Source: an uncultured Acidobacteriota bacterium (GTDB lineage: Bacteria > Acidobacteriota > Thermoanaerobaculia > Thermoanaerobaculales > Sulfomarinibacteraceae). From it: DNA of 64,000 nt. The DNA lies in the NCBI GenBank assembly GCA_963712805.1, contig CAVQJV010000062.1:14157-78156 (forward strand), given 5' to 3'. Position 1 is the first letter of the stretch. The number at the start of each line of letters is the position of its first letter. The position numbers and the translations under genes were made by a program. Positions 16,349-34,067 of this stretch are shown piece after piece. The notes under the pieces are model-generated. The model saw only the letters and a program-made list of their open reading frames with translations. It had not been told where the DNA came from and did no database searches.

Positions 16349-19300
16349 ACCCGCCCTCGCCGCGGTCGCTCCTCGTCGAGCACCCGGCGTTGCCCAGCCG
16401 TTCGAGTCAACTGATGCCGATCCGAGGGCTGGTCCCATTGAGGTCTCTCGGTCACGTCGATCGCTACCGGCCGCGGTCCAGTTGGTGGCGGTCACCGCGT
16501 TGCTCGCCGACTTCGAACTCTGGCCGGGGCGGTGGGCGCTGCGCCGCGCCATGGTCGAGATCGACCGATGACGGACCGCGGGTGCTGCTCCCGTCCCTGC
16601 CGGTGTCGCTTTCACGGATCTGGTCGAAGCTGGGAGGCGGCGACCCGGCGGCGGAACGAACCCGGACCGCGGTGCTGAGCACCATTTCCGAGGCGACCGG
16701 GATCGATCTGAAAGGGCGTGGCACGGTGGGGTTCGAGACCGGTTTCTTTCCTCGACGGGGTCCTCGCGGGATGGCTCGGTGAGCTCGATCTGCCCCTCGA
16801 TGCAGCAACCGCGCGTTCGTTGTGGATGCTGCGGTGGTCGCTGCCGACCTGTCCTGAGGCCGGAGACACGAGGTTTCTCGCGATTGCCGACGCCGCGACT
16901 CGCCGACGGATCGGTGTGGCGATGTGGGCCGCGGCGCATCGCCGCGGGTACGCGGCGAGCTTTGAGATCGTCGGCGCCGATGGCGCGGTCGAGGAGATGT
17001 CGGGGATCCGGGGGGCGGTGGAGTTCGAATTCTGGCGGGGGAGTTCGGCGACCGAATCCTCGCATCGCTCATGGATCGAGACGGCAACCTCGATGGAAGC
17101 GCGGTGGCCCTCGGTCGATTTCCCGAGGGGTGGAACCCGGCACCGGCGCCGGTCTTTCATCTCGATCGTCTTCCGGTCCACCTCACGATAGCGGGTCTCT
17201 CACCGGCGCAGAAGCTGCGTTGGATTGAAGAGCGGAACGGACGATTCAACCCGTTTTCCTCAGCCGATCGCCGGTGGCTCACCGGTTGCGCCGCAGAGCT
17301 CTTTTCCGGGTCCCGTCGGCGCACGAGCGCGAGGTTCCGGGACCTCGTCCACGTCGCCGGGTTGGCTCCGGATGGCGTGCCGGTCCCGAGCGCCCTCGAG
17401 ATGGCTGGAGTCGGCGAGGATGATCTCGAAGCGGCCGCGTCAGGATCGTGCCGTGGTCCTCCGTCACGGGTGTGTCACGGTTCCCGAGCCGCGGCCGTTG
17501 ACCATCGACCCTCGTCACGCCGAGGTGGCCCGGTTCTTCGACGAGGAAGATCCCAGGAGGCTGCTGCACTCAGCGCTCGCCGACGGCAACACCGGAGAGC
17601 TCCTCGCGTGGGCGCGGGCTCGACTGGACAATCTCGACGCAGCGGCTGTCAGAGGGTTGCTGACCGGATTGGAGACCGGCGCCCTCGGGCCCGGGGTTCA
17701 GGCGGCTTTGGCCGAGGCGTGTCTCTGCCTGGCCGATATCCACGGGGCCCGTCGAGCGTTGAACGGGTTGAACGACGAGATCGCGCGGCCGTGGGCGAAT
17801 TGGCTTCGCCTCATGGATCGACCGCCCGAACTCGAGGTCGAGATTCCGCATCCCGTGGATCTTCGTCAGGCTCCTCGCGCCTGCGCCGAGATCGCTCTCG
17901 TGAGCGTCAGACGAGCGCTGTGGTGGAAGACCGAATCCGCCGAGGAGGCGCTGGAACTCGTGCACGCCTGCTTGGCCTGTCTCAACGGTACGGCTCGGCG
18001 ATGGGTGGAGATCAAACTGACCGCTCTGGTCGAGCCCGAGCGGCTGGCCGATGCCGGTTGGCGCCGGGAAATGACCGGAGGCCACCCCGAACTCGTTGGT
18101 CTGATCCTCTTCGAGAGATCGCTCAGAGCGATGTTCGAAGAGCAGTTCAAGCGCGCGAACCGCCTTCTCAGGAGAGTGATGGCGGCGGAACGCGCCCCGG
18201 GAAGATTGGCCCTCATGCAGGTCAACCTCGGCACCCTCGAGGCCGACGCCGGTCACCACCAGGTGGCGGAAGCGTTGACCCTTGGCGCGTTTCGGCTTTT
18301 TCAGGCGGCCGGATTCCGGCATCGCCTCTGGGATGCCCTGCACAATTTGGCCGTGATGGACATCGATCAGCTTCGTGTGGAACGGGCGAGCGCCCGGCTC
18401 GACGCGGTTGCTGAAGCCCAGCACACCCTGTTTGTCGAGATCGAGCGCAGCCGATTGGCATTGGCGGTCGGGGATCTCGATCTCTTTCGATCTCGGCTCC
18501 GAGGATTGCCGTCGATGGACGACCTCTCGAATCCGCAGATCATCCAGGCCCTGTCGTTTCTCAAAGGGGTGGAGGCGTTGTTTTTTTCCTCGGCCGAAGC
18601 GGCGGCGGCGCTGTTGCGAGCCGGGGGACAGGAGGGCCTGGTCTGGCTTGAACTGGCTGACGCCATCGACCGACGAGACGACCGATCGACCGGATCCCAC
18701 AGCGACGGGTGGGGGGTACGACGCGCCGCGTTCCTGGTGCGCGTCAGCCGCGAGAGCCCATCGGTTCGAGAACTGGACGAGTTGATCAACGAGCCTCTCG
18801 ATCATCGCGAGGCCCTCGCGGTGACGCTGTGTGCACAGCTCGCTTGTCGGCCGGGGTGGCCCGGGCCCGACCTCAGGACGCGTGCGGCGGTCGTTCTTGC
18901 CGGCCGCGGGCTGACGGGTTGGGCCGCGCGGATCAGGTGGGGGAGTTCCGAGGTGGAGGCGTTGCTTCAGAACTTCGTTCGGTTGCTGAGAACTCATGAT
19001 TCGGGGCAGGACGTCGATGGCGTCCTCGAGGGTGTGCTTTCGCAGTTCGGCGTGACCGGGCTCGTTGTTCGGATGGTGGATCGGGATTGCGAACTCTTGC
19101 GCATCGGCACCGGCTGGTCGGCCAGCGGCGAAGTCCGCGGTTCGCTCGAAGTGGTTCCCCTGGGTTCGGAACCGATCCGAGGATCGGCATGGACTCTTCT
19201 CTGCGATCTCCTGGAACTCATGATCCCGGTCGCCAGAACCCCCGAGATGAGGGTCGATCGCAGCGAAGTTCGCATTGACGGCTCCTCTCGCGGGATCGAG

Positions 19301-20182
19301 CAGTTGCGGCAGGATGTGCGGCTCCATGCAGGACCCGGATATGCCGTGCTCGTGCACGGTGAGACCGGGTCCGGCAAGGAAGTCGTCGCCAGGGAACTCC
19401 ACCGGCTTTCCGGGCGGAAGGGAGAGTTGGTGTCGGTCAACATCGCCGCGATCCCGATCAACCTTCTCGAAGCGGAACTCTTCGGTTCGGTGAAGGGAGC
19501 CTTCACCGGTGCGGAACGGTCTCGAGGGGGTCTGGTGGCGGCGGCCGATGGTGGCACTCTTTTTCTCGACGAGGTCGGGGATCTCGATCTTGCGTTGCAG
19601 GTCAAGCTTCTTCGTTTTCTCGAGTCGGGCGAGGTCCGGCCGGTTGGTTCCGATCGGACCAGGGTGATGGATGTTCGAGTCGTCTGCGCCACCCATCGGA
19701 AGCTCGACCGTCTCGTTCGGGAGGGTCGGTTCCGGGGCGATCTCTTCTTCCGGATCGCGGTCGCCAAGATCCTCGTCCCGCCGTTGCGGGAACGCGTCGA
19801 GGACATTTTGATGTTGCGGTCGATTTTCGAACACGAAGCGTCGCATCGGCACGGGCTACAGGTGTCGAAATGGAGCGTCGCAGCCGAGCGTTGGCTGCTC
19901 AACCACCGATGGCCGGGCAATGTCCGGGAACTCAAGCACACCGTCGAGGTCGCCATGGCGCGAGCTGGTGGGGAGGCGATTCGACCGGAGCACCTTCCCT
20001 TGACCGAGCAGCCGACCGCGCTGCGTGGAACCTGGGAGAGCACGGTCGGCGATTTCAAACGTCGCTTCTTGACCGAGGTCCTGTCCCGCCACAAGGGGAA
20101 TCGAAGCGCCGCCGCAAGGGAACTCGGCATCTCACGCCAGGCGCTGCTTTATCAAATCAGGAAACTCGGGCTCGGAGCCTGA
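16345..20182 (+). CDS. Very large sigma-54 enhancer-binding protein: divergent N-terminal region, TPR-like helices, AAA+ domain and Fis HTH (N-terminal part frameshifted)
   Basis: Walker [68 protein letters not shown]; 985 aa uninterrupted from 17225. Confidence 0.85.
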
Positions 20183-20299
20183 TCGCATCCTCTGGGTTTC
20201 GGTTTGTCCTCCGATCGCCCGCGCGGTCTGTGGGCACAGGGACAAGCTCGTTGGCATTGTGACGCCTGAGGTCCAGCCTGCAGCGCCGATATGCGGGAC

Positions 20300-20327
20300 A
20301 AAAAAGATGCGGACCGTGCGGTCCGCA
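20300..20327 (-). terminator. Intrinsic terminator of the putative sRNA
   Basis: Minus strand TGCGGACC-GCAC-GGTCCGCA-TC-TTTTTT. Confidence 0.85.
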
Positions 20328-20379
20328 GGAGGAAGGAGGAGGTATGATGCGTTTACCAGGTCGTTGTGTGCCCGGCTAT
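20300..20379 (-). ncRNA. Putative sigma-54-dependent small RNA (~80 nt) with a CU-rich anti-SD seed
   Basis: Consensus -24/-12 promoter at 20390-20406, 5' hairpin CCGGG/CCUGG, single-stranded ACCUCCUCCUUCCUCC, then an 8-bp terminator and U6; no ORF within the predicted transcript. Confidence 0.7.
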
Positions 20380-20389
20380 CTTTACAACT

Positions 20390-20406
20390 AGCAAGCATCG
20401 TGCCAA
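20390..20406 (-). promoter_or_regulatory. Sigma-54 (-24/-12) promoter
   Basis: Minus strand TTGGCACGATGCTTGCT matches TGGCAC-N5-TTGCW exactly. Confidence 0.85.
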
Positions 20407-20426
20407 CATTCCAAGCGGGGAAGAAA

Positions 20427-21347
20427 TTGCTGGTTGGTCAGCGAGACAAATTGGAATTCGGTCTTCGAGAGTTGCGCCGAAATGCGGACGTGGAACTTCA
20501 CGAAAGGGTGGATCTGCGCGCCTGGACGTGTCTCGGCGTCGGCGGCGTCGCAACCCTGGTTGTGCGCTGTCACAACGCATCCTCGGTGGCTGAGACCCTC
20601 AACCTGGCTGCTTCGCACGGATTGGGCTGGTTGGTGCTGGGAAGCGGCTCACGGATCATCGCACCGGACAGTGGGATCCGCGTCCCGGTGGTGAGTGCAA
20701 CCGGGGAGCTCGCGCGCTGGAAGGTGGAGGTGGACGGAATCGAGGCAGGCGCTGGTGCCAACTTGGCACAGGTGTGCCGGGCCGCTCGTCGCGCCGGGCT
20801 TTCCGGGCTGGAGTCCCTCGATTCCAGGGACCACAGCGTCGGCGGAGTGATCCGAGCCGCCATCGACGGGGTGGTCGATCTCGGGAGTGTGCTGGACTGG
20901 ATCGATCTCCAAGCTCCGGGCTGCGGACCGCAGCGGTGGCACGCGACCGACGATGAATCCATTCCCGATCGGCGGCAGATTCACCGCAAGGTCGTCACCA
21001 GGATCCGGTTTCGCCTTCGACCGTTTCCGGTGGTCAGGATCCTCCCTGGCACCCTGAGATCGATCCGAAGCCGGGCCCTGCGTTCGACGGGTCCGATCTT
21101 CCTCGACTCCCAGGATGCCACGGCGGCCGATCTCCTCGCCGAGGCCGGGTGCCGCAATCTGACGGTCGGTGGAGTTCGAATCGGCGGCAACGGGGGCAAC
21201 GACCTCATCGCCGGGCGATCGGCCACAGCCGGGGATGTGCTGGATCTCTGCCGCCGCGCCCGCGATCGGGTCGCCGCCGCCACCGGCGTGGAACTGATTT
21301 CGGCGCTGGTCTTTGTCGACGACGACGGGCTGGAAACCACCCTATGA
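20427..21347 (+). CDS. MurB-fold FAD-binding protein, divergent paralogue lacking catalytic motifs
   Basis: MurB layout recognisable (L..WT.LGVGG.A, LVLGSGS, AGAG, GLSGLE, VGG, V...TGVEL), but the IPG/MNAGA, GS.FKNP, HANF and LE.EV motifs are replaced; TTG start after GGGGAAG. Confidence 0.7.
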   Translation: MLVGQRDKLEFGLRELRRNADVELHERVDLRAWTCLGVGGVATLVVRCHNASSVAETLNLAASHGLGWLVLGSGSRIIAPDSGIRVPVVSATGELARWKVEVDGIEAGAGANLAQVCRAARRAGLSGLESLDSRDHSVGGVIRAAIDGVVDLGSVLDWIDLQAPGCGPQRWHATDDESIPDRRQIHRKVVTRIRFRLRPFPVVRILPGTLRSIRSRALRSTGPIFLDSQDATAADLLAEAGCRNLTVGGVRIGGNGGNDLIAGRSATAGDVLDLCRRARDRVAAATGVELISALVFVDDDGLETTL

Positions 21348-22594
21348 AACGCGGTCGTCGGTTGTTGGTGATCGCGGCGGTGTTCGCGGTACTCATCGAG
21401 ACGGTCGGGTTCGCGGGGTGGTGGAGCTGGCGCAGAGTCAGTCGATTGATCGAAGTGAGCCCGGCCGAGGGCGCACTTGCTCTATCGCGGGATCTGTTCC
21501 TTCGCCTTCCGTCTGCGGTTCGTCGTTCGCGGAGAATGCCGACTCGTGATCTTGGCAAAGCTCGTGATGATCTCGTGGTGGCTGCGTTGGGCTCACTGAG
21601 CCGGAGCCAGATCCGCTGGGTGCCCGCCGACTCCGCCGGGTTTGTCAACCGCGCGCGCGCAGAACTCATCGAAGGATCCTTGGATCTGGCGATGGAGGCT
21701 CTTGACAGCGCCATCGTCCGCAACCCGACCTCGCCGGATCTCCACTGGTTGATGGCGCTCACCGAGCGGGCTCGGGGGTCCAACGCCAGTGCCCTCGACC
21801 ATCTTGCGACCTCAGCCGGTTTGGGATCCCGAGACGGTCCCCTGCGAATGGAGTTGACGCCCGAGGAGACGGACTGGGTCAGAATCGAGGGTCTCGAGCG
21901 CCGATTGGAGTACTACCCGCGGGCTCGAAGCGCGGGGGTGATCGCGCTTGCCAGGGAACTCCGAAAACGGGATCAGGCGAAAATCGGCCGCACCTACCTC
22001 GAGGAGGAACCGTGGGACCCGCGCATCGAGCTCGAACTCGCCCGATGGGATCTCGACGATGGTTTCATCGCCGAGGCGGAGATCCGTCTCAACGGTTTGG
22101 CCGATCGAAGCGGTCTTCCGGCGGCACTGCTCGCCGAAACCTGGGCTGTGATGGCCACCGTTCGAGACCGCCAGGGAGACATCGAAGGCGCGGTCGAGGC
22201 GGCCGATATGGCGTTGACCTACGATCCGCGTTCGGCGGCCCCGTACCGGGTTCTCGCGGGATTGGCGGAACGCCGGGGAGATGTCGACGAAGCCCTCGAC
22301 CATCTGCGGCGGGCGTGGGGGATGAATCCCACCGATGTGCCTCTGCTCCTCTCGGTCGCGCGGATCGCCGAAAAGGCGGGTCAGGTCGATGATGCGCGCC
22401 TTGCGCTCGAACGCGCGAGGAACGCCGATCCGAGCAACCCGAATCTCGCCGCTTCGCTCGTCGAGTTCTATCTTCGACAGGGTCGGTTCATGGATGCGAC
22501 CGTCACCCTGTCGGACGCCCTCGATCGTTTCCCCACCGACCCGAGGCTGCTCGGTCTCGCGGATCGGCTCAGGGCGGAGGTGCGACGGCGGTGA
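21344..22594 (+). CDS. Membrane-anchored tetratricopeptide-repeat protein
   Basis: N-terminal TM segment LLVIAAVFAVLIETVGFAGWW; repeated TPR-type helices ending in NP/DP; ATGA overlap with the MurB-like gene. Confidence 0.75.
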   Translation: MKRGRRLLVIAAVFAVLIETVGFAGWWSWRRVSRLIEVSPAEGALALSRDLFLRLPSAVRRSRRMPTRDLGKARDDLVVAALGSLSRSQIRWVPADSAGFVNRARAELIEGSLDLAMEALDSAIVRNPTSPDLHWLMALTERARGSNASALDHLATSAGLGSRDGPLRMELTPEETDWVRIEGLERRLEYYPRARSAGVIALARELRKRDQAKIGRTYLEEEPWDPRIELELARWDLDDGFIAEAEIRLNGLADRSGLPAALLAETWAVMATVRDRQGDIEGAVEAADMALTYDPRSAAPYRVLAGLAERRGDVDEALDHLRRAWGMNPTDVPLLLSVARIAEKAGQVDDARLALERARNADPSNPNLAASLVEFYLRQGRFMDATVTLSDALDRFPTDPRLLGLADRLRAEVRRR

Positions 22595-22596
22595 GG

Positions 22597-23075
22597 CGTG
22601 AATCGTGAGTCGTAGATCGTAAGTCGATTTCGCGAGTCCCGGCGACGGTTGGACCATCGCAGTTTTACCGCAAAGAACGCAAAGAACGCCGAGATCATCG
22701 CAAAGAACATCGCATTTCTGACTCATCGCACCATCGCACCATCGCACGGAGAAACCGCAGATAGCGCAGATGGACGAAGATTCCACCGCACCATCTCATC
22801 AAGTGGATAACGCGAAGGTCCGCAGCAAAAACGGCCTCCCAGCAATAAGCTCGTTCAATCCAGAAAACACACGTCGACATTCCATTGCGATGGCTCTTGA
22901 AAACTGTTCGTTGAGATGGCCTTCGCGATCTTCGCGGTCTTTGCGTTTCAAATGGTTCGCTGAAGTCACACCGAACGATCCACGAAGTTGTGTGGCGCGC
23001 CGGAGCCGAGATCCCACTCTGGTTTGCGGTGGTTCATGGAGACCCTGGTGGGTCTTTATGTCCTTCGTGTTGAAC
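22597..23075. repeat. Intergenic mosaic of short-period (7-, 8- and 9-bp) tandem repeats, partly in inverted orientation
   Basis: (CGTRRRT)x4 at 22597-22626; CGCAAAGAA units at 22669-22707; (CATCGCAC)x3 at 22724-22747; CGCAGATRG units at 22756-22782; inverse CTTYGCGNT x3 at 22921-22947. Confidence 0.75.
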
Positions 23076-23149
23076 AAGATTCACTGAAGGCGCCACCACC
23101 GATTCACGAAGTCGTCGAGCGCTCCCGAACCGAGGACGCGCCTTAGGAC

Positions 23150-23917
23150 TTACGACCCACCCTCGTCGTCCTTAGACCGATCGCCGGGGACTTTGGCGGT
23201 GGCGACGATCTCGGGATCGGTCTTTGCCGCCCATTGCATCTGGCGACAGATACCGCGGACGATCTTGACTTCATTCTCGGTGATGCCCGCCCGTCCGAAG
23301 AGACGACGGAGCTTTCTGATAATACGTTCGGGGTTGTCCGGGTCGGCGAACCCGATATCGGCGAGGGCGACGTCGAGGTGGCCCATGAGACCGTCCACCT
23401 GGGTCCCGGTGGCCGGCAGTGGCGCGCTGCTGTCCGGCGGTTCGAGCTGGAGGGTCAGATAGCTCAAGAGAATGGCGATGGCCTGGGTGAGGTTGAGGAC
23501 CGGGAAGTGCTCAGCGGTGGGGATCCGAATGACCATGTCGGCGCGATCGAGATGGCTGCGACTCAGCCCACGGGTCTCGTTGCCGAAGACGAGCGCCGCG
23601 CCGCCAAAGCCGCGTCGAGCGAGTTGGGTGGCGCCCTCGGACGGCGTCAGGACGGGAAGATCGGTGCGGCCACGCGTGGAAGCCGTTGCCGCCAGGGTCC
23701 GGTAGTCGGCCACCGCCTCGTCAAAACCGTCCCAGGTGCGGATGTCGAGATGATCCCTGGCGCCGCACGACCAGCGGACGACTTCGTCGTTGTCTGCGCT
23801 GATCGATGGTCTCACCAGATCGACTCGTGGCACCGCGAAGTTGGCGGCCACCCGAAACGTGGCGCCGATGTTCCCGGCGAGCGAGGGTTCAACGAGGACG
23901 AGCGAGGCAACCGGCAT
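23150..23917 (-). CDS. trmJ: TrmJ/LasT-type SPOUT RNA methyltransferase
   Basis: LVLVEP...GNIGA..R..ANF, ALVFGNETRGLS, IPT...FPVLNLTQA, LRRLFGR...ENEV...RGI. Confidence 0.8.
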   Translation of the reverse strand: MPVASLVLVEPSLAGNIGATFRVAANFAVPRVDLVRPSISADNDEVVRWSCGARDHLDIRTWDGFDEAVADYRTLAATASTRGRTDLPVLTPSEGATQLARRGFGGAALVFGNETRGLSRSHLDRADMVIRIPTAEHFPVLNLTQAIAILLSYLTLQLEPPDSSAPLPATGTQVDGLMGHLDVALADIGFADPDNPERIIRKLRRLFGRAGITENEVKIVRGICRQMQWAAKTDPEIVATAKVPGDRSKDDEGGS

Positions 23918-23981
23918 GACGCCGGACATCATAGCCTGGATGATCATCGCCTTCAGGGAAGCGTAAGTCGTAAGCCGCGAC

Positions 23982-24546
23982 TCACGATTCTCCGAAGACC
24001 TCGGCGGAAAAGGCCGAGATCTCGGCGTTGTCGCTCCTCCAACAGCCCGAATTCATCCCCGCTTTGCGGCAGGTCTGATCGAGAAACTCCTCCGGCGACC
24101 AGCCGTAGCGTTCCGCCACCTGGGGCAGGAGCAGGCCGCGGTGGATTCCCCGCTCGATCACGAGTCCGTCTCTGCCGATGACGATCTCACCCGGACTGCG
24201 AAACCCGCCACAGCGGGATGAGAGCCGAGATCTCGATCTCGATGGATGCGAGATCCTCTTCGGTGATCGGCGAAAACCGGGGATCGCGAAAGGCGGCGTT
24301 GATCGCATTTGAGCGAACCGAGAGCCACAGTGGTTCGGTGCCGACGACGTGGCCGATACACCCGCGAAGGGCTCCGTCGCGGGTGAGGGTGACGAATGCG
24401 CCGCGGATTTCGCTGAGCGGGCCCGGCAACGGTGGTTCGTCGGGGAGGTGGTCGCATCGCAGGTGCGCTTTGATGGCGGATCGGGCGAGACCGAGGAGCC
24501 ATTGTCGTTCGTTGCCATCGAGCAGCACGGTTTCGTTCAAAGCCAT
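23982..24546 (-). CDS. AMMECR1-domain protein (AmmeMemoRadiSam protein A family); one frameshift
   Basis: GAFVTL...LRGCIG, AAFRDPRFSP, IEISAL, GRDGLVI...RGLLLPQVA, FLDQTCRKAG, FSAEVF. Confidence 0.88.
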
Positions 24547-24568
24547 GACTCGATGGTATCGTGATTCG

Positions 24569-25836
24569 GTGATTGTCAGGCTTCCATACGGCTCTGATTA
24601 CCTCGCCTTTGATCTTCGGGGACTCAAGGTCCGGCCGCTGCAGCCGTTGGCTCCCCAGGGATCCCGGGATCTCGGGCGGATGCTGTCGCGGGCCGTTGAC
24701 TATCCTGTCGATGGTGAAGGGCTCCGAAATCTCGCTGCGAAGTGCCGGACGGCGGTGATTGTGGTTCCCGATGCGACCCGGAGGGCAAGCCTGCCCGGTG
24801 TTCTCCCGGTGATCCTCAGCCGGTGGCTCGCGGCCGGTATCAGGGCCGATTGCATCACAGTTCTCGTCGCCTGCGGCACCCATCCGCCGGCGCCTCGAGG
24901 CGAGGTCGCGACCCTCCTCGGTGAGCTCCCTCTCGGGGTCAGAATCCGACAGCATTCGAGCCGCGACATCGCCGCCCTCGTTGAGGTCGGCGAGATTCGT
25001 CCCGGCGTCCCTCTCCGGCTCGACCGCGAGGCGGTGGAAACCGATCTGCTCGTCACCGTCGGGGCGGTTCGCCATCACTATTTCGCCGGATTCGGCGGCG
25101 GACCGAAGATGGTCTTTCCCGGTATCGCGGGTCATGACGAGATTCAGGCAAATCACTCGCTGGTTCTGCATCGACCGACGACCGGCTCGAACGCCACCCC
25201 GGTTGCGAGCCCGGTGTCCTCCTTGGCAATCCGGTGGCGGAGGAGATCGCCGGGGCGGCGGATCTCAGGCCGCCCGATTTCGCCGTCTGTCTGGTTCCGG
25301 GGCGAAATGGCGGGATCGCCTGGGTCGGCGCGGGTTCTTGGCGAGAGGCATTCACGGTGGCGGTGGAGAGGGTTCGCGAGTGGTACGAACTCCCAGCCGG
25401 GCGCTTTCAACACATCGTGGCATGTGGTGGCGGCCGGCCAGGCGACTCGACCCTGATCCAGGCCCACAAAGGACTCGACGCCGCGTGCCGATTCGCTGTA
25501 CCCGGCGCCGAGGTGGTCTTCGCCGCCGAGCTCGAATCGGGGCCCGGATCTCCGGCGATGGAGCCGTTTCTCGCCGATCCGCGTCCGTCATCGATTCTCG
25601 ATCGTCTCGATGAACGTTATGTCCAGTACGGACACACCCTGCTGCGCATTCTCGAGAAGACGGAACAACATCGTGTCTTTCTGAAGTCATCCTTGGATCG
25701 AGAGACGGCGATCCGGCTCGGTTTCATCCCCGTCGACGATCTCGACGAGGTCGCCGATCGCTGGCGCGAGGAGGGCGTTCACGATCGGGTCGCCGTCATG
25801 GCCGAGGCCCACGTCTGGCCGCGGTCGGCTCGCTGA
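24569..25836 (+). CDS. LarA-family nickel-pincer-dependent racemase/epimerase (frameshift near 25180)
   Basis: M.VRLPYG start, VVPDATR, VACGTHP, HYFAGFGGGPKMVFPG, ANH, TLIQAHKGL. Confidence 0.8.
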
Positions 25837-25914
25837 GCCGATCGGATTGATTCTCGTCAAGGACGTGTTGGCGGAAAGGAGCGATACTGAGCGCGGATCG
25901 CGAAGGAGGCCGGT

Positions 25915-26703
25915 ATGGCAGTTCGACAGATTATCGAGATCGACGAGGATCTCTGCGACGGTTGCGGAGATTGTGTCTCCGCCTGCGCGGAGGGGGCCAT
26001 CCAGCTCATCGACGGCAAGGCGAAGCTCGTCAGTGACAACTACTGCGACGGGCTCGGTGCCTGCATCGGTGACTGCCATGTCGGCGCCATCAAGATCATC
26101 GAACGCGATGCGGACGGTTTTGACGAAGCGGCCGTTGCGGTTCATCTCACCAAGATCGGCAGGGGCCACGAACCGATTCCGGTCCTGCGTCCTTTGAATG
26201 TCGTGAATCCGATCATGACCGGAGGGGGAGGGGGTTGCCCGGGGTCGCGGGCGCAGACGCTCCAACCGCCCCCGGTCGCGACGTCGGGCGAGATTCCCGC
26301 CGCTGCCTCGCAGCTCGCCACTGGCCGATTCAGCTTCACCTCGTGCCGCCGACCGCGCCGTTCTTCCAGGGCGCCGATGTTCTGTTGGCGGCGGACTGCG
26401 TGCCGTTTGCGGTGGGGGACTTCCACCAGCGGTATCTGGCCGGATCATCGCTCGCCATCGCCTGTCCCAAGCTCGATCACAACCAGGAGATCTACCTGGA
26501 GAAGCTCGTCGCAATGATCGATACCGCGGAGATCGCCTCGATCCACGTCGATGGTCATGGAGGTTCCCTGCTGCAGCGGGCTCGTCCGCCTGGTGGACGA
26601 GGCGCGGAAGCGCGCATCGCGGCAGGTGCCGATCAGTTGCACGGTGATCGGAACCGATGGAGGCGTCCGGCACGAACTCGAGCTCGAACGGACAGCGGTG
26701 TAA
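25915..26703 (+). CDS. 4Fe-4S dicluster protein with a Cys-rich C-terminal domain (frameshifted)
   Basis: [11 protein letters not shown] and [12 protein letters not shown]; then [29 protein letters not shown]. Confidence 0.85.
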
Positions 26704-26869
26704 AGAAACGGAAAATCCACCCGGCGACACGGGTACAATCTGCGATCGGAACGGGGGGATTCCGCTTTCGGGTCCGCTTCTGTCGTGGTGACCGCAGGAT
26801 CGAAGCGACAACGGTCCCGATCTGAAATCACGTCGCGGCGCGACGCGTCCGACGATTTTGGAGGCATTG

Positions 26870-27948
26870 ATGAAGCGAGCTGTTCTGATCCTCGTGCTGC
26901 TGTTGTCGTGGTGGGCATCGTCGCATCAGGTCGAAGCCCAGTCGGGCGGCCCGACCTTTTCGGCGGAGAACCCGAGGATCGATATCGGCGAGATCAAGGC
27001 CGGCAGCGAGGCGGTGGCGACGTTCGTCTTTAACAACAAGGGACCGGTGGATGTGACGATCATCAGGGCCAAACCCTCTTGAGGCTGCACCGTGACCGAG
27101 TTCGACTCGGTCATCCCGGCTGGTCACTCGGGAACGTTGACGGCAAAGATCAAAACCACGACGACTCAGAGTGGTCCGGTATCCAAGAGCATTGCGGTGA
27201 CCACCAACGCCGCCGGCGCCCAGCGGATGACGTTGAGCGTCACCTTCTATCGCAGTTTCCGCGATCACGGTGCTCCCGCGACCGCAGATCTGAACTCAAC
27301 GGCGTCGTCGGCGACGAACCGACGGCAACCCTGATCTTCCACCGTCCGGATGGCGAAGAACTCAAGATCGTCGGTGTCGAGAACACCGAGACGAGCGAAT
27401 CGTGATCACGACCAAACCGGTGACCGAGCCGGTCCAGATCGGACGCGACCAGGCGGTTCCCGGTGACGTTCTGCTGGTGGCCTCGTTGGCGCCGGGAGTG
27501 GCTGATACCACGGCGAGCGGCCAGGTCAGGGTCAACACCAACCACCCGGATTCCGAAGTCTCGATCGCCTATTCGCTTCGAATTCGACCCGTAATCGAGG
27601 CCGACCCGACGGAGATTCGACTGCTTCTCCAGGAGGGGAACACCTCGTCTCGAACGATGCTCGTTCGGGTGCAGCACAATCTCCGAGGGGAGTTCAAGGT
27701 GACCGGGTCCCAGCCTTCGAGTCCGGAGCTCTTCCGGGCGCAAATCGTCGACGGCGACATCAGCAGCAGACCCACACCGTGGCCGTCATGCTCCAGGATG
27801 ACGTTCTTCCGGGTTCCTTGAACAACCGGGTGCTCGAAAGCCTGGTTCTCGACACCGATGACGCCGACCCAGCCGGAGCTCATCATTCCGGTGCTCATCG
27901 AACCGAAAGCGCTTCGCAAGACCGGCCCCGCCGCGGCCGTTGGAGTAA
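26870..27948 (+). CDS. Secreted DUF1573/Ig-like protein, probable selenoprotein (UGA at 27080-27082); later part frameshifted, end approximate
   Basis: Signal peptide, IDIGEI...FVFNNKG...IIRAKPS-UGA-GCT...IPAG.SG.L...KSIAV.TN; the frame stays open across the UGA, which occupies the first Cys of the family SCGCT motif. Confidence 0.75.
27083..27114 (+). promoter_or_regulatory. SECIS-like stem-loop
   Basis: TGACCGAGT-TCG-ACTCGGTCA, a perfect hairpin beginning at the 11th nt after the in-frame UGA. Confidence 0.65.
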
Positions 27949-27974
27949 CCGGCGACGTCCCGGAGACAACGCGC

Positions 27975-29577
27975 TCAACCGCGAGTCGGGGATTTCCCCG
28001 AGGGTGCGGATGAGATGAACCGCCAGGGCGGGTCGCCTTCGACGGATTCCAGTGGCTCGCCTGACCGCGGTGTGCTTGTGGTCGCTGAGAAGCCGGCCGA
28101 GACTGCGGTGATCGGCGAGTTCTTCGATGAGATCGAAGGTCTGCGCATCGCCGCGGCTCAGGATGGCCTGCCAGAGCGCCTCCCGGTAGGACGGCCGGTC
28201 GAATTTGAGGTTGTCGATGGGTTTGAGTTCCTTTTCGATCAGCGCCATCCGTCTCCGGTACTCGGGTTGCGAAAGCACCGGTTCCTTGGAGTACGGCGTA
28301 TAGGGTTTGGGAACAAGCACGCTGCAGCCTGCGTGGAGAGTTCCCATCCGTCCCCGATCGCGGCCGTGGCCGAGCATGATCGTGCGGGTTTCACGGAGGA
28401 GGTTCGCCGATCGCCGCGAGGTCGTCGTCGGTCTCACCGGGCAGACCGACGATGAAGTACATCTTCAGGCTTGCTGATGCCGCAGGCCTGGGCGGTCTCG
28501 ACCGCCTCGAGGATGCGGTCGTTCGGGATCGGTTTGTTGAGCCTTCGCGCGGAGTTCGTCCGAACCGGTTTCCGGGGCGATGGTCACCGATCGAGCGCCC
28601 GAGGCGGCGAGGGGCGCGAGCACCTCGGGAACCATCGCCGGGATTCGAAGCGACGACAGAGCGACGTTGAATCCGAGTTCGCGGCTCTCGTGGAGGATCT
28701 CGGGGCAGTTCGGGGTGGTCGCCGACCGCGGTCGCGACGAATCCGACCCGATCGGTGATTTCTGCGGAGATCCTCGAACCCGGTCGAGGATGGCCTCGGC
28801 CGGGTAGCAGCGGAGCTTGCCGTAGTTATAGCTCACCCAACAGTACCGACACTTCTCCGGGCAACCCCGGGACATCTCGACGAGGCCGCGGTTGCGATAC
28901 TCGGTGTTCGGGGTGACGACGTATGAACTCGGAACCAGCGCCGGGTCGTTCATCTCGCGATCGCGTTTTTCGATCCGACGAAGACGCCCGAGAGGGTCGT
29001 CCCTCGCCGTCGAGATGGTGGCTCGGGACGAAGTACCCGTCGCGGCTGGCGAGTTCGGCCAGCAGGCGATCACGGTCCGGTTCTTCTCGGGCAAGCTCGA
29101 GCAGTTGCGGCCACAGGAGCTCGGCCGCACCGAGGACGAAGACATCGACGGCGCGGCTCAGGGGCAGTGGGTTGATCGAGGCGACGGCGCCTCCGAGGAC
29201 GACGAGGGGTCGCGGGGTGAACGATCGCGTCGTGCGGCGGGCGATGCCGGCGGCGTCGAGGGTGTGGATCAGGTTGACGGCGTCGAGTTCGAAGGAACAA
29301 CTCCATGCCAGGAGGTCGAGGGACGCGAGGGGAGTGTCATCCTCGAATGGTTCGTCCGGCGCCGTCCGGGGGCGCGAAAAATCGCGGACATCGGCGACAT
29401 CCGGGACGCCGGCCGCGAGCTCCACGACCCACTGAAAGGCGAGCGATGAAAGCGCGACGTGGTAGCGGTTCGGATAACCGACACCGACCCTGAGTCGCCC
29501 CTGTCGGGAGCACGAGTCCGACGGCGCTCATCTCCGAGAAGATCCGTCTGCTGGCTGGGATTGATTCTCCGTCCCAC
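27975..29577 (-). CDS. B12-binding-domain radical SAM protein (frameshifted)
   Basis: SFELD, VLGGAVASINPLPL, EMSRGCPEKCRYC (CxxxCxxC), SSLR, TIAPETGS, VPKPYTP. Confidence 0.85.
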
Positions 29578-29708
29578 CCGGCAAACCGTAACACGGGGAC
29601 GGCGGGATAGGTGTCGAGAAGCTGCGGGTGCTGGATCTTTCTCGTGTCTTCGGCATTCGGGGCTGGACTCTCAGCGGAACTGACGTACAATAACGGTCCC
29701 GGTGCGTC

Positions 29709-30476
29709 ATGGAAGAAAGCCTTCCCGCATGTTCCTGTGTCGAACTCCTGAATCAACCAAACCCCTGGTCGTTGCCATCGATGGTCCCGCCGGCGCCGGC
29801 AAGATCGACGGTCGCACGCCTGCTCGCGAGCCGTCTCGAGATTCCCTACCTCGATACCGGGGCCATGTACCGCGCGGTCGGCACTGCTGGCGATCCGGGC
29901 CGGACTCCAGATCCGCTTGACGAAGCCGAGCAGATGCAGGTTGCCGCTCTGGCGAGCGATCACGTCATCGAACTCGAAGACAAGGACGGGTCGGTCCGGG
30001 TCATGGTCGACGGTCAGGACGTCAGCGAGGCGATCCGAACCCCGGAGTGCGCGCTCATGGCATCCGCCGTGTCGGCGGTGTCGGGTGTCCGACGCGCGCT
30101 CGTACCGATGCAGCGTCGATCGGACTGGAAGACGGCTGTGTGATGGAGGGTCGCGACATCGCCAGCGTGGTTTTTCCCGGATGCAACCCTGAAGGTCTAT
30201 CTCACGGCCAGCTCCGGACGAGCGGGCCGTGCGCCGTCATCTCGATCTTCAAGACAAGGGAATCGAGACGTCGGTGGATGAGGTCAAGCAGCAGCAGCAC
30301 CATCGCGATCTGCAGGACACGTCGCGGTGCGGACTCGCCCCTCCACGTCGCCCGGGGGTCGGTGGTGGTCGACACCACCGGAGCTGACCCTCGACGAGGT
30401 CGTGGAGCGGTTGCTTCGCGAGCTTGCAAGCGATCGTCCGATTACTGCCTTGACACAAACGGTGAAAACACCATAA
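29709..30476 (+). CDS. cmk: Cytidylate kinase (frameshifted)
   Basis: VVAIDGPAGAGK, YLDTGAMYRAV, VMEGRDI, DSPL; directly upstream of rpsA. Confidence 0.9.
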
Positions 30477-30543
30477 GGTCTCGAAACCACGGAGAGTTGG
30501 GACGCAGGAGGTCTGCGCCCATCGAGGAGGAGTCGTCTTGAAC

Positions 30544-32618
30544 ATGGACCCTGAACTGAACGGTGAGATGGACAACGGTAGCGGGAATGGATCAGCTCTC
30601 GATGGAAGAGTTGATGGAGACCTCGCTCCAGACCTCTGCGGGAAGGCGAGGTCGTTCAAGGGAACCGTCGTCGCGGTGAACGCGGACGAGGTTCTTGTCG
30701 ACATCGGTTACAAGTGCGAAGGCATCGTTCCCATCGGCGAGATGACGGATCCGGAAACCGGGGAGGTGCATGGTCGCCGTCAACGACATCGTCGATGTTT
30801 TCGTCGAGCGGCTCGACGAATCGGAGGGACGGGTGCGTCTGTCGCGCGACCGCGCCTCGAAGCTCAAGATCTGGAGCGTCGTCGAAGAGGCCTACAAGGA
30901 ACGGGGCCTCGGTCAACGGGTCGAGTCCTCGAGAGGGTCAAGGGCGGCCTCGCGGTGGACATCGGCATCCGGGCATTCCTCCCCGGTTCGTTGGTCGATC
31001 TGCGGCCCAATCGGCGGCTCGAAGACTATGTCGACCAGGAGATCGAGGCCAGGGTGATTTCCTTCGACCGTCGGCGGTCCAATGTCGTGCTGTCGAGAAA
31101 GGCGGTTCTGGAAGAGAGAGGTGGGCAAGGTCAAGGACGAGACCATGGCCGTCCTCGAGGAGGGCAAGCTCGTCACCGGGGTGGCCAAGAACATCACCGA
31201 CTACGGCGTGTTTGTCGATCTCGGCGGGCTCGACGGTCTGCTTCACATCACCGACATTTCCTGGGGCCGAGTCGGTCACCCGAGCGAGTACTTCAAGGTC
31301 GGCGACGAGGTCGACGTCGTGGTTCTACGCTTCGATCGCGAGCGTGAGCGGGTTTCGTTGGGATACAAGCAGCGTTTCGAGGATCCCTGGATTCTCGTTC
31401 CCGAGAAGTACCCGGTCGGCAAGCGGGTTCACGGCGAGGTCGTGAGCATCGTCGACTACGGTGCCTTCGTCGCTCTCGAAGAGGGCGTCGAAGGCCTGGT
31501 CCACGTCAGCGAGATGTCGTGGACCAAAAAGGTCAAGAACCCGCGGTCCATTCTCGACATCGGACGAGGAGATCGAGGTCGTGGTCTCCGAGGTCGACGC
31601 CGACAAGCGGCGTCTTTCGCTGTCCCTGCGAGCCATCGAGCCCAACCCCTGGGAGCAGGTGGCCGACACCCACCACGTGGGCAGCCGGATCAAGGGCGTG
31701 GTGCGCAACCTGACCGATTTCGGCGCCTTCGTCGAGATCGTTCCCGGTGTCGATGGTCTGGTCCACATCTCGGACATGTCGTGGACCCGCCGCATCAATC
31801 ACCCTTCAGAGGTGGTTCAGAAGGGCGAAGAGGTCGAGGCGGTCATCACCTCGGTCGATGTCGTGAACCAGCGGATTTCGCTGTCGATGAAGGAACTGCT
31901 GCCCAACGAGTGGGAGGAGTACGCCAACTCCCACGGCGTCGGCGACCTGGTCGCCGGTGTGGTCACCAACATCACCGATTTCGGCGTCTTCGTCGAACTC
32001 GCCCCGGGTGTCGAGGGTCTGTGCCACATCTCGGAGATCGATCGCGATGGTGGTCTGACGCTGGCCGAGACATTCATCCCGACGCAGAATGTGACCTGCC
32101 GCATTCTCCGGATCGACTGGAACGAGAACCGGATCGGGCTCTCCATGCACAGCGTCGATCAAGATGACGATGGTGAAACGATGGCCTCGGTGGACGCCCC
32201 GGTGATCGAGACCGCAATGGGAGCAGCGTTGAAGGCTGCCGTCGGCATCGTCGATGACAAACTTCCGCCTGAGATCGAGGCAATGACTGACGGCGTTGAA
32301 GTCGAAACCGTGGAAGCGGTCGTCGAAGCCGCCGAAGAAACGGTCGAGGAAGCGGTCGTCGAAGCCGCCGAAGAAGCGGTCGAGGAAGCGGTCGTCGAAG
32401 CCGCCGAAGAAGCGGTCGAGGAAGCGGTCGTCGAAGCCGCCGAAGAAGCGGTCGAGGAGGCGGTCGTCGAAGCCACCGAAGAAGCGGTCGAGGAAGCCGA
32501 AGTCGTGGAAGCGGTCGTCGAAGACGCCGAAGAAGCGGTCAAGGAAGCGGTCGTCGAAGCCGAAGCGGTCGACTCAGAAGATGAGGAAGAAAACAAGGAG
32601 CCTGGCGAGAGCAGCTGA
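30544..32618 (+). CDS. rpsA: 30S ribosomal protein S1 with an acidic repetitive C-terminal tail (frameshifted)
   Basis: VLVDIGYKCEG, AFLPGSLVD, NITDYGVFVDLGGLDGLLHITDISWGR, YGAFV...EGLVHVSEMSW, NLTDFGAFVE. Confidence 0.95.
32313..32570 (+). repeat. 36-bp coding tandem repeat (EAVVEAAEEAVE), about 5 copies plus 2 degenerate copies
   Basis: GAAGCGGTCGTCGAAGCCGCCGAAGAAGCGGTCGAG repeated in frame within rpsA. Confidence 0.92.
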
Positions 32619-32664
32619 CCGGTGGGGGTGATCGACCGGCGAAAGGGAACGGGGGATTGGGCAT

Positions 32665-32949
32665 ATGACGATGACCAAGGCTGATCTTGTGGAATTAGTT
32701 GCCGGGAACGCCGACGTCCCGCGAAAGCAGGCTGACGAGGTGGTTCAAGTCGTCCTCGACAGCATCGTGGATGCGCTGCAACAAAACGAAAAGGTCGAGT
32801 TGCGCGGGTTCGGATCATTTCGGATCCGACAGCGCGACGAGCGGACCGGGCGCAACCCGAAGACCGGCGACAAGGTCCACGTTCCGCCAAAGAAAATCCC
32901 CTATTTCAAACCGGGTAAACACCTCCGCGAAGAACTGCTCCACCAGTGA
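32665..32949 (+). CDS. ihfB: HU/integration host factor subunit
   Basis: MTKADLV, VELRGFGSF, GRNPKTG, PYFKPGK; follows rpsA as ihfB usually does. Confidence 0.8.
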   Translation: MTMTKADLVELVAGNADVPRKQADEVVQVVLDSIVDALQQNEKVELRGFGSFRIRQRDERTGRNPKTGDKVHVPPKKIPYFKPGKHLREELLHQ

Positions 32950-32965
32950 TCGTTGGTGACGGGTC

Positions 32966-33439
32966 GTGACTGCCGAAAAGAAAACACGCGGGAGTGGTGA
33001 TGGGAAGGGCGGCGGCGAGGACGCGTCGAATCCGGTCTCTAAATCGCTCCTCTTCCTGTCATGGTTGGTGCCCGGTCTCGGCCACTGGCTGCTCGGGAAG
33101 CGGGTCCGGGCGGCGGTCTTCGCGGCCATCGTGACCGCATCGTTCATCACCGGGATCCTCCTGCACGGAGAACTCGCGGTACCGCAACAGGACAGCCCGC
33201 TATCGTGGTTCTTCACCCTCGGTTGCATCGGCAACGGGTGGCTTTATTTCGTCAGATTGTTGTGGGTCAATGGGTTCGACGGATTGTTCAGCGCGGCGTT
33301 CCCGTACGGACTGTCTGGTGGTGGCGACCCGGTGTCGGCCGGGTTTTTCTACGGAAAGACTTTTCTCTACACGGCCGGTCTTATGAATCTCCTGGTGGTG
33401 CTTGATGTTCACGACATCGCGCGTGGCGACAAGAGCTGA
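32966..33439 (+). CDS. Membrane protein (DUF6677-like)
   Basis: SWLVPGLGH.LLG and YG..F...AGLMNLLV..DV.D motifs; several TM segments. Confidence 0.65.
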   Translation: MTAEKKTRGSGDGKGGGEDASNPVSKSLLFLSWLVPGLGHWLLGKRVRAAVFAAIVTASFITGILLHGELAVPQQDSPLSWFFTLGCIGNGWLYFVRLLWVNGFDGLFSAAFPYGLSGGGDPVSAGFFYGKTFLYTAGLMNLLVVLDVHDIARGDKS

Positions 33440-33440
33440 G

Positions 33441-33608
33441 ATGGACCACTTTCTTCTCCTCTTCTGGCACGCGTTCTTGGTCGCCGTGTTTTTCGCCTTT
33501 CTCTGGCGGTCCGACACGCGCGGTCGAAAGGGGCTGTTCCTCAAGACCTTTCTGATCATGTTCGTGGGTGCCATCGCCCTGGGATGGCTCATGTTCCCGT
33601 TCCCGTGA
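33441..33608 (+). CDS. Small two-TM membrane protein
   Basis: MDHFLLLFWHAFLVAVFFAFLW...GWLMFPFP, tightly packed between its neighbours. Confidence 0.65.
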   Translation: MDHFLLLFWHAFLVAVFFAFLWRSDTRGRKGLFLKTFLIMFVGAIALGWLMFPFP

Positions 33609-33628
33609 TCGACAAAGTCAGAGGGTCT

Positions 33629-34067
33629 TTGAGCCTCGACGAGGATCCGGACCCACAAGCCGAGCTTGAGCCTCCCACGCCCTCCCGGACGATGCACCGG
33701 CCGTCGATCGTTTTTCGCTGGGCCGCCAACGGCGGCTACGCGATACTATTGGTGACCATGGCGGTACTGCCGTCGACCTCACGGGCGTTGGCTCTCCGTT
33801 CCCGATTGGTTGGCCCATGCGATGGCTTACGGCATCCAGATGGCGCTTGTCTATTGGGCTGCGCTGCCTTCGCTCGGCCATCGCCGGTCCCTGGTCGTCG
33901 GTGTCGTCGCCGCGGGCGTCTTCGGTGCTGTGACTGAATGCCTGCAATTTCTCCAGCCCGCGAGGACGGTCGAACTCAAGGACCTCGCTGCCAACGCCGT
34001 CGGGGCGCTGATTTGCTGCGGCGTCATCGCCGGCATCGGCTGGAGAAATGCGCGGAGGGTCAACTGA
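33629..34067 (+). CDS. VanZ family membrane protein (frameshifted)
   Basis: H...Y, G...E.LQ...PART....DL.AN.VG signature. Confidence 0.7.

Follow-up and report, generated by a model that had tools for sequence, protein, structure and literature searches.

A UGA codon in a DUF1573 gene of an uncultured Acidobacteriota bacterium is very probably read as selenocysteine in a divergent, exported OS_HP2 paralogue

In bacteria generally, SelB together with Sec-tRNA(Sec) binds a hairpin of the message and delivers selenocysteine (Sec) at a UGA codon instead of termination. In the SECIS of the E. coli fdhF type, this hairpin is a stem-loop within the coding sequence, about 11 nt after the UGA, with a G in its apical loop. 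DUF1573 domain-containing proteins (PF07610) with the motif UGC are listed in the tables of prokaryotic selenoproteins of a 2022 review (PMC9312934) and of a 2026 review (PMC13188914), both of which cite Zhang & Gladyshev (2007; PMC1976440). As presented in the two reviews, the selenoprotein status of OS_HP2/DUF1573 comes from computational lists. The entry for OS_HP2 in the 2007 study (PMC1976440) gives two Sec members, from the deltaproteobacterial delta-1 and delta-4 symbionts of Olavius, and no Cys homologue known at that time. Literature searches joining Thermoanaerobaculia with selenocysteine, or Sulfomarinibacter with "seleno-", returned nothing, and the DUF1573 literature that we found holds no functional work.

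The names OS_HP2 and DUF1573 are linked by the NCBIfam model NF041425, "OS_HP2 family (seleno)protein", which matches the domain of the protein described here. This model asks for an x-G-C motif with Sec or Cys in first place, and the window protein carries U-G-C. Its score of 63.4 bits lies below the model's cut-off of 100 bits, as do those of four other members of the Sec clade (63-77), of the Cys orthologue L056 (65.8) and of a Cys paralogue from the same family (94.8); two Cys paralogues from the sister family score 119 and 121. A preliminary description of this locus had presented it as a hidden selenoprotein. Our analysis supports the selenocysteine, but the novelty was overstated, DUF1573 with UGC being an already catalogued family. 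The locus is a new, mis-annotated branch of that family and opens no new question, since family and motif have been listed since 2007.

The gene lies on the forward strand of the window, the whole 64-kb stretch of DNA that was analysed. In the list of open reading frames it is broken into 26858..27082 (74 aa, terminating at the TGA 27080-27082) and 27092..27334 (80 aa). Read through this codon, the frame goes on as MKRAVLILVLLLSWWASSHQVEAQ...IIRAKPS-U-GCTVTEFDSVIPAG. The split at the TGA and the continuing frame had both been pointed out before, and they are confirmed. The Pfam domain DUF1573 (PF07610) crosses the TGA (residues 31-123, 26960..27238, forward strand; E 2.7e-17, 63 bits against a gathering cut-off of 26.1). 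The orthologue of genome G009, a congener, reaches 56 bits against the same cut-off. The UGA is codon 71 and aligns to the first Cys of the family C-G-C motif, as the preliminary description had it. The end that it gave for the feature, 27334, has to be revised: the TGA found there is met after a frame-breaking indel. According to a collinear DNA alignment with the intact genes of four congeners, the whole selenoprotein gene occupies 26870..27948 (forward strand), ends at the TAA 27946-27948 and has about 359 codons in the intact congeners. Intact orthologues are 358-425 aa long.

A Sec-pathway signal peptide, MKRAVLILVLLLSWWASSHQVEA (26870..26938, forward strand), was predicted by eye from the sequence; cleavage likely occurs after VEA. 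It shows a basic N-terminus, a hydrophobic core and an A-x-A-like site, and has neither a twin arginine nor a lipobox Cys. An AlphaFold model of the G009 orthologue (27-sequence alignment, mean pLDDT 88.2) consists of a signal-peptide helix, given with low confidence at residues 3-18, and three beta-sandwich domains; the S-U-G-C sits in the turn joining strands 63-70 and 75-79. The predicted architecture is a signal peptide followed by three tandem Ig-like (ASH/HYDIN/PapD-like) domains, the first of which bears the S-U-G-C turn. A Foldseek search of this model against the PDB returned generic tandem Ig-like proteins only (ciliary central-apparatus proteins, adhesins, titin, cadherins) and no functional lead. 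A family-profile sequence search of solved structures gave one weak and uninformative protocadherin match (E 0.0031).

We searched the read-through protein in six frames against 40 relatives, comprising 24 other genomes of the same family (f1) and 16 of the sister family (f2). The best match contains exactly one in-frame TGA in 23/24 of the f1 genomes, while all 16 f2 genomes give stop-free matches only. In all 24 TGA loci, our own included, the context is K/R-A-K-P-S-[TGA]-G-C, and in 6/6 sister-family homologues the TGA aligns to the first Cys of R-P-T-C-G-C, encoded there by TGC or TGT. The search was widened to the whole order (119 genomes), and 48 further f1 loci were fetched: 46 carry TGA at the site, G091 has TGC, and the contig of G048 stops just 3' of it. 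Compared letter by letter, the window's own copy and 69/76 other f1 genomes (23 + 46 loci) have TGA at the aligned site. Two genomes (G072 and G073, 83% and 65% complete) show matches at the level of the Cys paralogue only, and three (G053, G020 and G080; 72%, 100% and 85% complete) have no match at E <= 1e-20. Some low-identity Cys-paralogue rows, with matches to query 350-357, were flagged "TGA"; we assumed that they read through a terminal stop. The comparison of homologues that the preliminary description had proposed thus bears it out, with TGA at the same position in these 69 genomes and aligned to Cys in the Cys forms.

Over the class as a whole (401 genomes sampled from 23 families), matches at E <= 1e-32 occur in 61/64 f1 genomes and in 0/336 others, so that the Sec form appears to be a paralogue limited to one family among the genomes sampled. 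Downstream of the TGA, the frame is open and conserved over about 290 codons in the intact orthologues (30-83% identity). These genomes also use TGA as an ordinary stop, with which several orthologues terminate. Decoding of TGA as Trp, or another altered genetic code, was considered and discarded, given that orthologues end in TGA and that the site aligns to Cys. A peptide-pattern scan of genome contigs, whose pattern starts with Cys and therefore detects Cys forms only, found 349 Cys-form relatives.

Among sequencing runs, the best match to the window contains 12% of the words. At the DNA level, contigs of relatives from four sequencing runs were aligned at 85% likeness; none covers the whole stretch, and they pile up at 27058-27136. 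Among the 40 differences listed, part of a longer set, none falls at 27080-27082, and we draw no evidence from this. This segment, which holds the UGA and the SECIS, is the gene's most conserved DNA across relatives. It is aligned by marine-sediment, sediment and aquatic metagenome contigs that match nothing else of the stretch.

The preliminary description had reported a perfect 9-bp hairpin with a G-containing loop from the 11th nucleotide downstream of the UGA, and this is exactly what we found. The hairpin (27093..27113, forward strand) pairs T27093-T27101 with A27105-A27113 in nine Watson-Crick pairs around the apical loop UCG (27102-27104); it can also be drawn as 8 bp with the loop UUCGA. 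The first base of the stem is the 11th nucleotide after the TGA, and the invariant loop G is at 27104. The 64-kb window contains 11 perfect 9-bp hairpins whose loop is 3-8 nt long, against 0-7 in 10 Markov simulations, from which the odds of one starting within a given 16-nt span are about 0.003. Taken whole, the 67-nt stretch has no unusual stability (z -1.44; 17/200 shuffles equal it), so that one sequence by itself gives modest evidence and the case rests on the comparisons. An Rfam scan of 26800-27400 (E <= 10) returned three chance-level matches and no SECIS family. Within 2.5 kb, the only other perfect 9-bp hairpin is found at window position 28426, with an 8-nt loop, in the radical SAM region, where the gene is on the opposite strand.

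The hairpin is kept in 70/70 Sec-form sequences (67 distinct). Six of its pairs are always paired, and the loop G is invariant in all 70. Over these sites 95.4% of the cells are paired, against 20-52% when the partners are slid. Pair 23-31 is AU in 64 sequences and GC in 3, the latter being loci L187, L191 and L194 (genomes G067, G066 and G065), where E-x-D-S becomes G-x-D-P and GAG/TCG becomes GGG/CCG at the SECIS stem. In these three genomes the base pair is preserved, and two amino acids have been exchanged along with it (E to G, S to P). Pair 18-36, formed by the third positions of two Val codons, is GC in 24, CG in 18, UG in 4, UA in 1 and unpaired in 20. The observed covariation score is reached by 0/500 shuffles. 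Changes on both sides affect only 2/15 pairs, a count that 75/500 shuffles also reach and that kinship inflates. The check on hairpin conservation suggested earlier thus gave a hairpin that is kept and covarying across Sec forms, though the covariation lends thin support.

Codon use offers what looks like a line of evidence independent of covariation. Among 21 intact orthologues, 8/59 conserved codon columns use a single codon, and six of these eight belong to the stem segment, codons 78-88 (E GAG, D GAC, S TCG, I ATC, P CCG, S TCG). Outside the stems, Asp, Pro, Gly and Arg residues conserved to the same degree switch freely among synonymous codons. The hairpin is absent in 6/6 Cys homologues and in the single Cys orthologue that lies within the Sec clade. 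This pattern argues that the hairpin is selected as RNA. A second, adjacent helix, CCCGGC...GUCGGG (27115..27132, forward strand), forms 5/6 of its pairs in the window's copy, and 96.8% of its cells are paired across the 67 distinct sequences; no pair is altered on both sides, and its codons P84 (CCG) and S88 (TCG) are invariant. This helix may extend the SECIS, or may simply follow from the IPAGGSG motif.

The genome assembly comprises 62 contigs and is 82% complete. It contains selB (330 bits, above the cut-off), selA in three frameshift-split pieces on contig C60, each below the model's cut-off, and a tRNA-Sec of 95-99 nt with anticodon TCA (75 bits), found by both Rfam and ARAGORN. A search for selD in this 82%-complete assembly did not find it: the best score of the family model was 33 bits, and tblastn with a congener SelD gave no match at E <= 1e-3. 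As selD is above the cut-off in 24/24 relatives, including all 11 congeners, we attribute its absence here to the 18% of the genome that the assembly lacks. The look for Sec machinery that had been proposed was therefore successful for selA, selB and tRNA-Sec, and left selD unfound in an incomplete assembly. Separately, a selD with an in-frame TGA (Sec-type SelD) was seen in 8 rows, all from the sister family f2 (genomes G025-G033) and none from f1, so the two families differ in which proteins use Sec.

The window's copy is itself disrupted, and we had to weigh whether it could be a dead member of a true selenoprotein family, decayed through real frameshifts. In the MAFFT DNA alignment with the four congeners, it shows six frame-breaking indels between 27252 and 27920 on the forward strand (+1 near 27252, +1 near 27290, +2 at 27391-27392, -1 at 27762, +1 at 27864 and +1 at 27920) beside an in-frame -3 at 27562. 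The preliminary description had taken the other breaks of the window as indels, and this gene alone has these six. So many within 1.08 kb would suit a decayed gene, as would the selD missing from the assembly. Between the indels, however, the translation is 50-83% identical to the congeners and has no extra stops, and short-read contigs of relatives depart from the window in the same way at 27763, 27864 and 27920. Neighbouring genes within the same 22 kb are split likewise (AMMECR1, LarA-like, radical SAM, cmk and rpsA), as is selA elsewhere. Most genes of window 19000-34000 are frameshifted relative to congeners, among them LarA-like (24190-25830), ferredoxin-like (25900-26800), radical SAM (28060-29740), cmk (about 30000-30540) and rpsA (30830-32190). 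Breaks that reach such housekeeping genes fit an indel-rich assembly rather than selective decay, and G009, a congener assembled in few contigs, has split selD and rpsA as well. Since the genes around it show the same kind of breakage, we read the six indels as assembly errors and not as decay; the death of this copy is improbable. The assembly looks indel-rich, of the long-read type, which probably lowered its completeness estimate.

Two further explanations concern the UGA itself. It could be a true stop between two genes, one for a 70-residue exported peptide and one for a separate protein starting from the GTG at 27092. All 67 public homologues are called in this way (212-313 aa), and TGA is a normal stop in these genomes. 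Yet a single Pfam domain bridges the TGA, and the Cys homologues run uninterrupted through the site. In the model, a protein starting downstream would be left without the signal peptide and with only half of the first beta-sandwich. The frame and the TGA are conserved in 69/76 genomes, with synonymous sites frozen just downstream, and we regard a true stop as very unlikely. It would be just as far-fetched to see in the hairpin a by-product of the conserved peptide E-F-D-S-V-I-P-A-G instead of a SECIS, the UGA being read through otherwise, for instance by near-cognate suppression. The peptide is indeed conserved, no Rfam family matches the region, invariant pairs make up 3/9 of helix 1 and 2/6 of helix 2, and most others change on one side only. 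A constraint on the peptide, however, does not account for the use of one codon each for the E, D, S, I, P and S of the stems, when residues just as conserved elsewhere are free to vary synonymously. The joint replacement of E by G and of S by P, which preserves the base pair, also speaks against it. Peptide and hairpin moreover both dissolve wherever the codon is Cys, and the lineage has the full Sec machinery.

We consider it very probable that UGA 27080-27082 is decoded as selenocysteine in a real gene for an exported selenoprotein, that this gene is a divergent OS_HP2/DUF1573 paralogue, and that its frameshifts are assembly errors. The locus combines a UGA aligned to Cys with a conserved downstream frame, a conserved stem-loop with a loop G, and selA, selB and tRNA-Sec in the genome. 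In the mechanism that we propose for this gene, SelB with Sec-tRNA(Sec) would bind the hairpin 11 nt downstream and selenocysteine would be inserted at the UGA. The product would have about 359 aa, with a Sec-type signal peptide and three Ig-like domains, and Ser-Sec-Gly-Cys would form the tight turn that joins two strands of domain 1. The selenol and, two residues on, the thiol might then act as a pair in the cell envelope, a step to which we attach low confidence. By analogy with the motif and with other selenoproteins, the chances are about even that this pair is a redox-active selenenylsulfide. A soft-metal site, suggested on the same grounds, is conceivable, with rather less than even chances. 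No copper or other metal genes were found within 16 kb.

Directly upstream, on the same strand, lie the LarA-like gene (nickel-pincer racemase family, below all equivalog cut-offs) and a gene for a 267-aa 4Fe-4S ferredoxin-like protein (window 24190-26800; L148:4815-7634 in a relative). The gene order AMMECR1, LarA-like, ferredoxin-like, Sec gene, (radical SAM,) cmk, rpsA recurs in five genera, the Cys-form genome among them. As evidence of a functional link this order is weak, because it is kept within one bacterial family and beside housekeeping genes. The LarA-like, ferredoxin-like and selenoprotein genes may form an operon or merely share an inherited gene order.

That standard annotation would miss this gene had been foreseen, and the public records agree. 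All 67 public homologues start after the TGA, are 212-313 aa long and cover 57-79% of the query, whereas the search range of 197-629 aa would show full-length forms. The Sec clade is therefore uniformly mis-annotated in public records. These records lose the signal peptide and the active-site motif, and NF041425 would not rescue them, the clade scoring below its cut-off. Correctly read, the gene would add an exported selenoprotein of non-thioredoxin fold to a sediment lineage, together with a well-sampled SECIS (70 sequences) that comes with natural compensatory and loss-of-Sec controls.

One of these controls is the Cys orthologue in L056:4125-4170 and G091:C1, whose letters are identical and which we counted as one observation. 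Its codon is TGC, the hairpin is dissolved, and the residues read D-Y-D-R-V-I-A-P. It looks like a secondary replacement of Sec by Cys, though it sits on a long tree branch. The tree was a quick maximum-likelihood one (LG+G4, SH-aLRT support only, unrooted) of 101 rows, of which 21 are intact Sec orthologues and 80 are Cys forms; we excluded three Sec copies that are broken or truncated, and 8/82 Cys loci that lack a clean ORF. The 21 Sec forms and the single Cys orthologue are split off by a branch with an SH-aLRT of 100. As the tree is unrooted, the direction of the change between Cys and Sec cannot be read from it.

The same genomes also hold a Cys paralogue (G000:C36:17345-18331; sister-family orthologues, e.g. 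L050 and L157). Like the Sec form, it has three collinear domains, a signal peptide and, at the same turn, C-G-C. It differs in having Cys for Sec and no hairpin, is 23-30% identical, and adjoins a Mur ligase gene in both families, whereas the Sec form adjoins the LarA-like and ferredoxin-like genes. We tentatively suggest that a Cys-type OS_HP2 was duplicated ancestrally in one Thermoanaerobaculales family and that the new copy gained Sec independently. A SECIS would have been written into the coding sequence, where it would now dictate E-x-D-S-V-I-P, and one later reversal to Cys would have dissolved both hairpin and residues. An inherited or transferred Sec form is just as possible, because the tree has no root and covers none of the original OS_HP2 members. 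If the gain was independent, the gene would be a clean natural example of the birth and loss of a SECIS within a reading frame, in this case that of an envelope protein peculiar to Acidobacteriota of marine sediments.

Compared with the described systems, the window gene shares with OS_HP2 the Pfam domain, the position of U-G-C (with Sec in place of the first Cys in C-G-C), a hairpin of SECIS-like form after the UGA and the fact of being known by computation only. The window's clade differs from OS_HP2 as a divergent, three-domain paralogue of one family, below the NF041425 cut-off. Its hairpin departs from the SECIS of the fdhF type in its unrelated sequence, its shorter loop (3-5 nt) and the second adjacent helix, and its binding by SelB is predicted. 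It resembles that type in being a stem-loop within the coding sequence, about 11 nt past the UGA, with a G in the apical loop.
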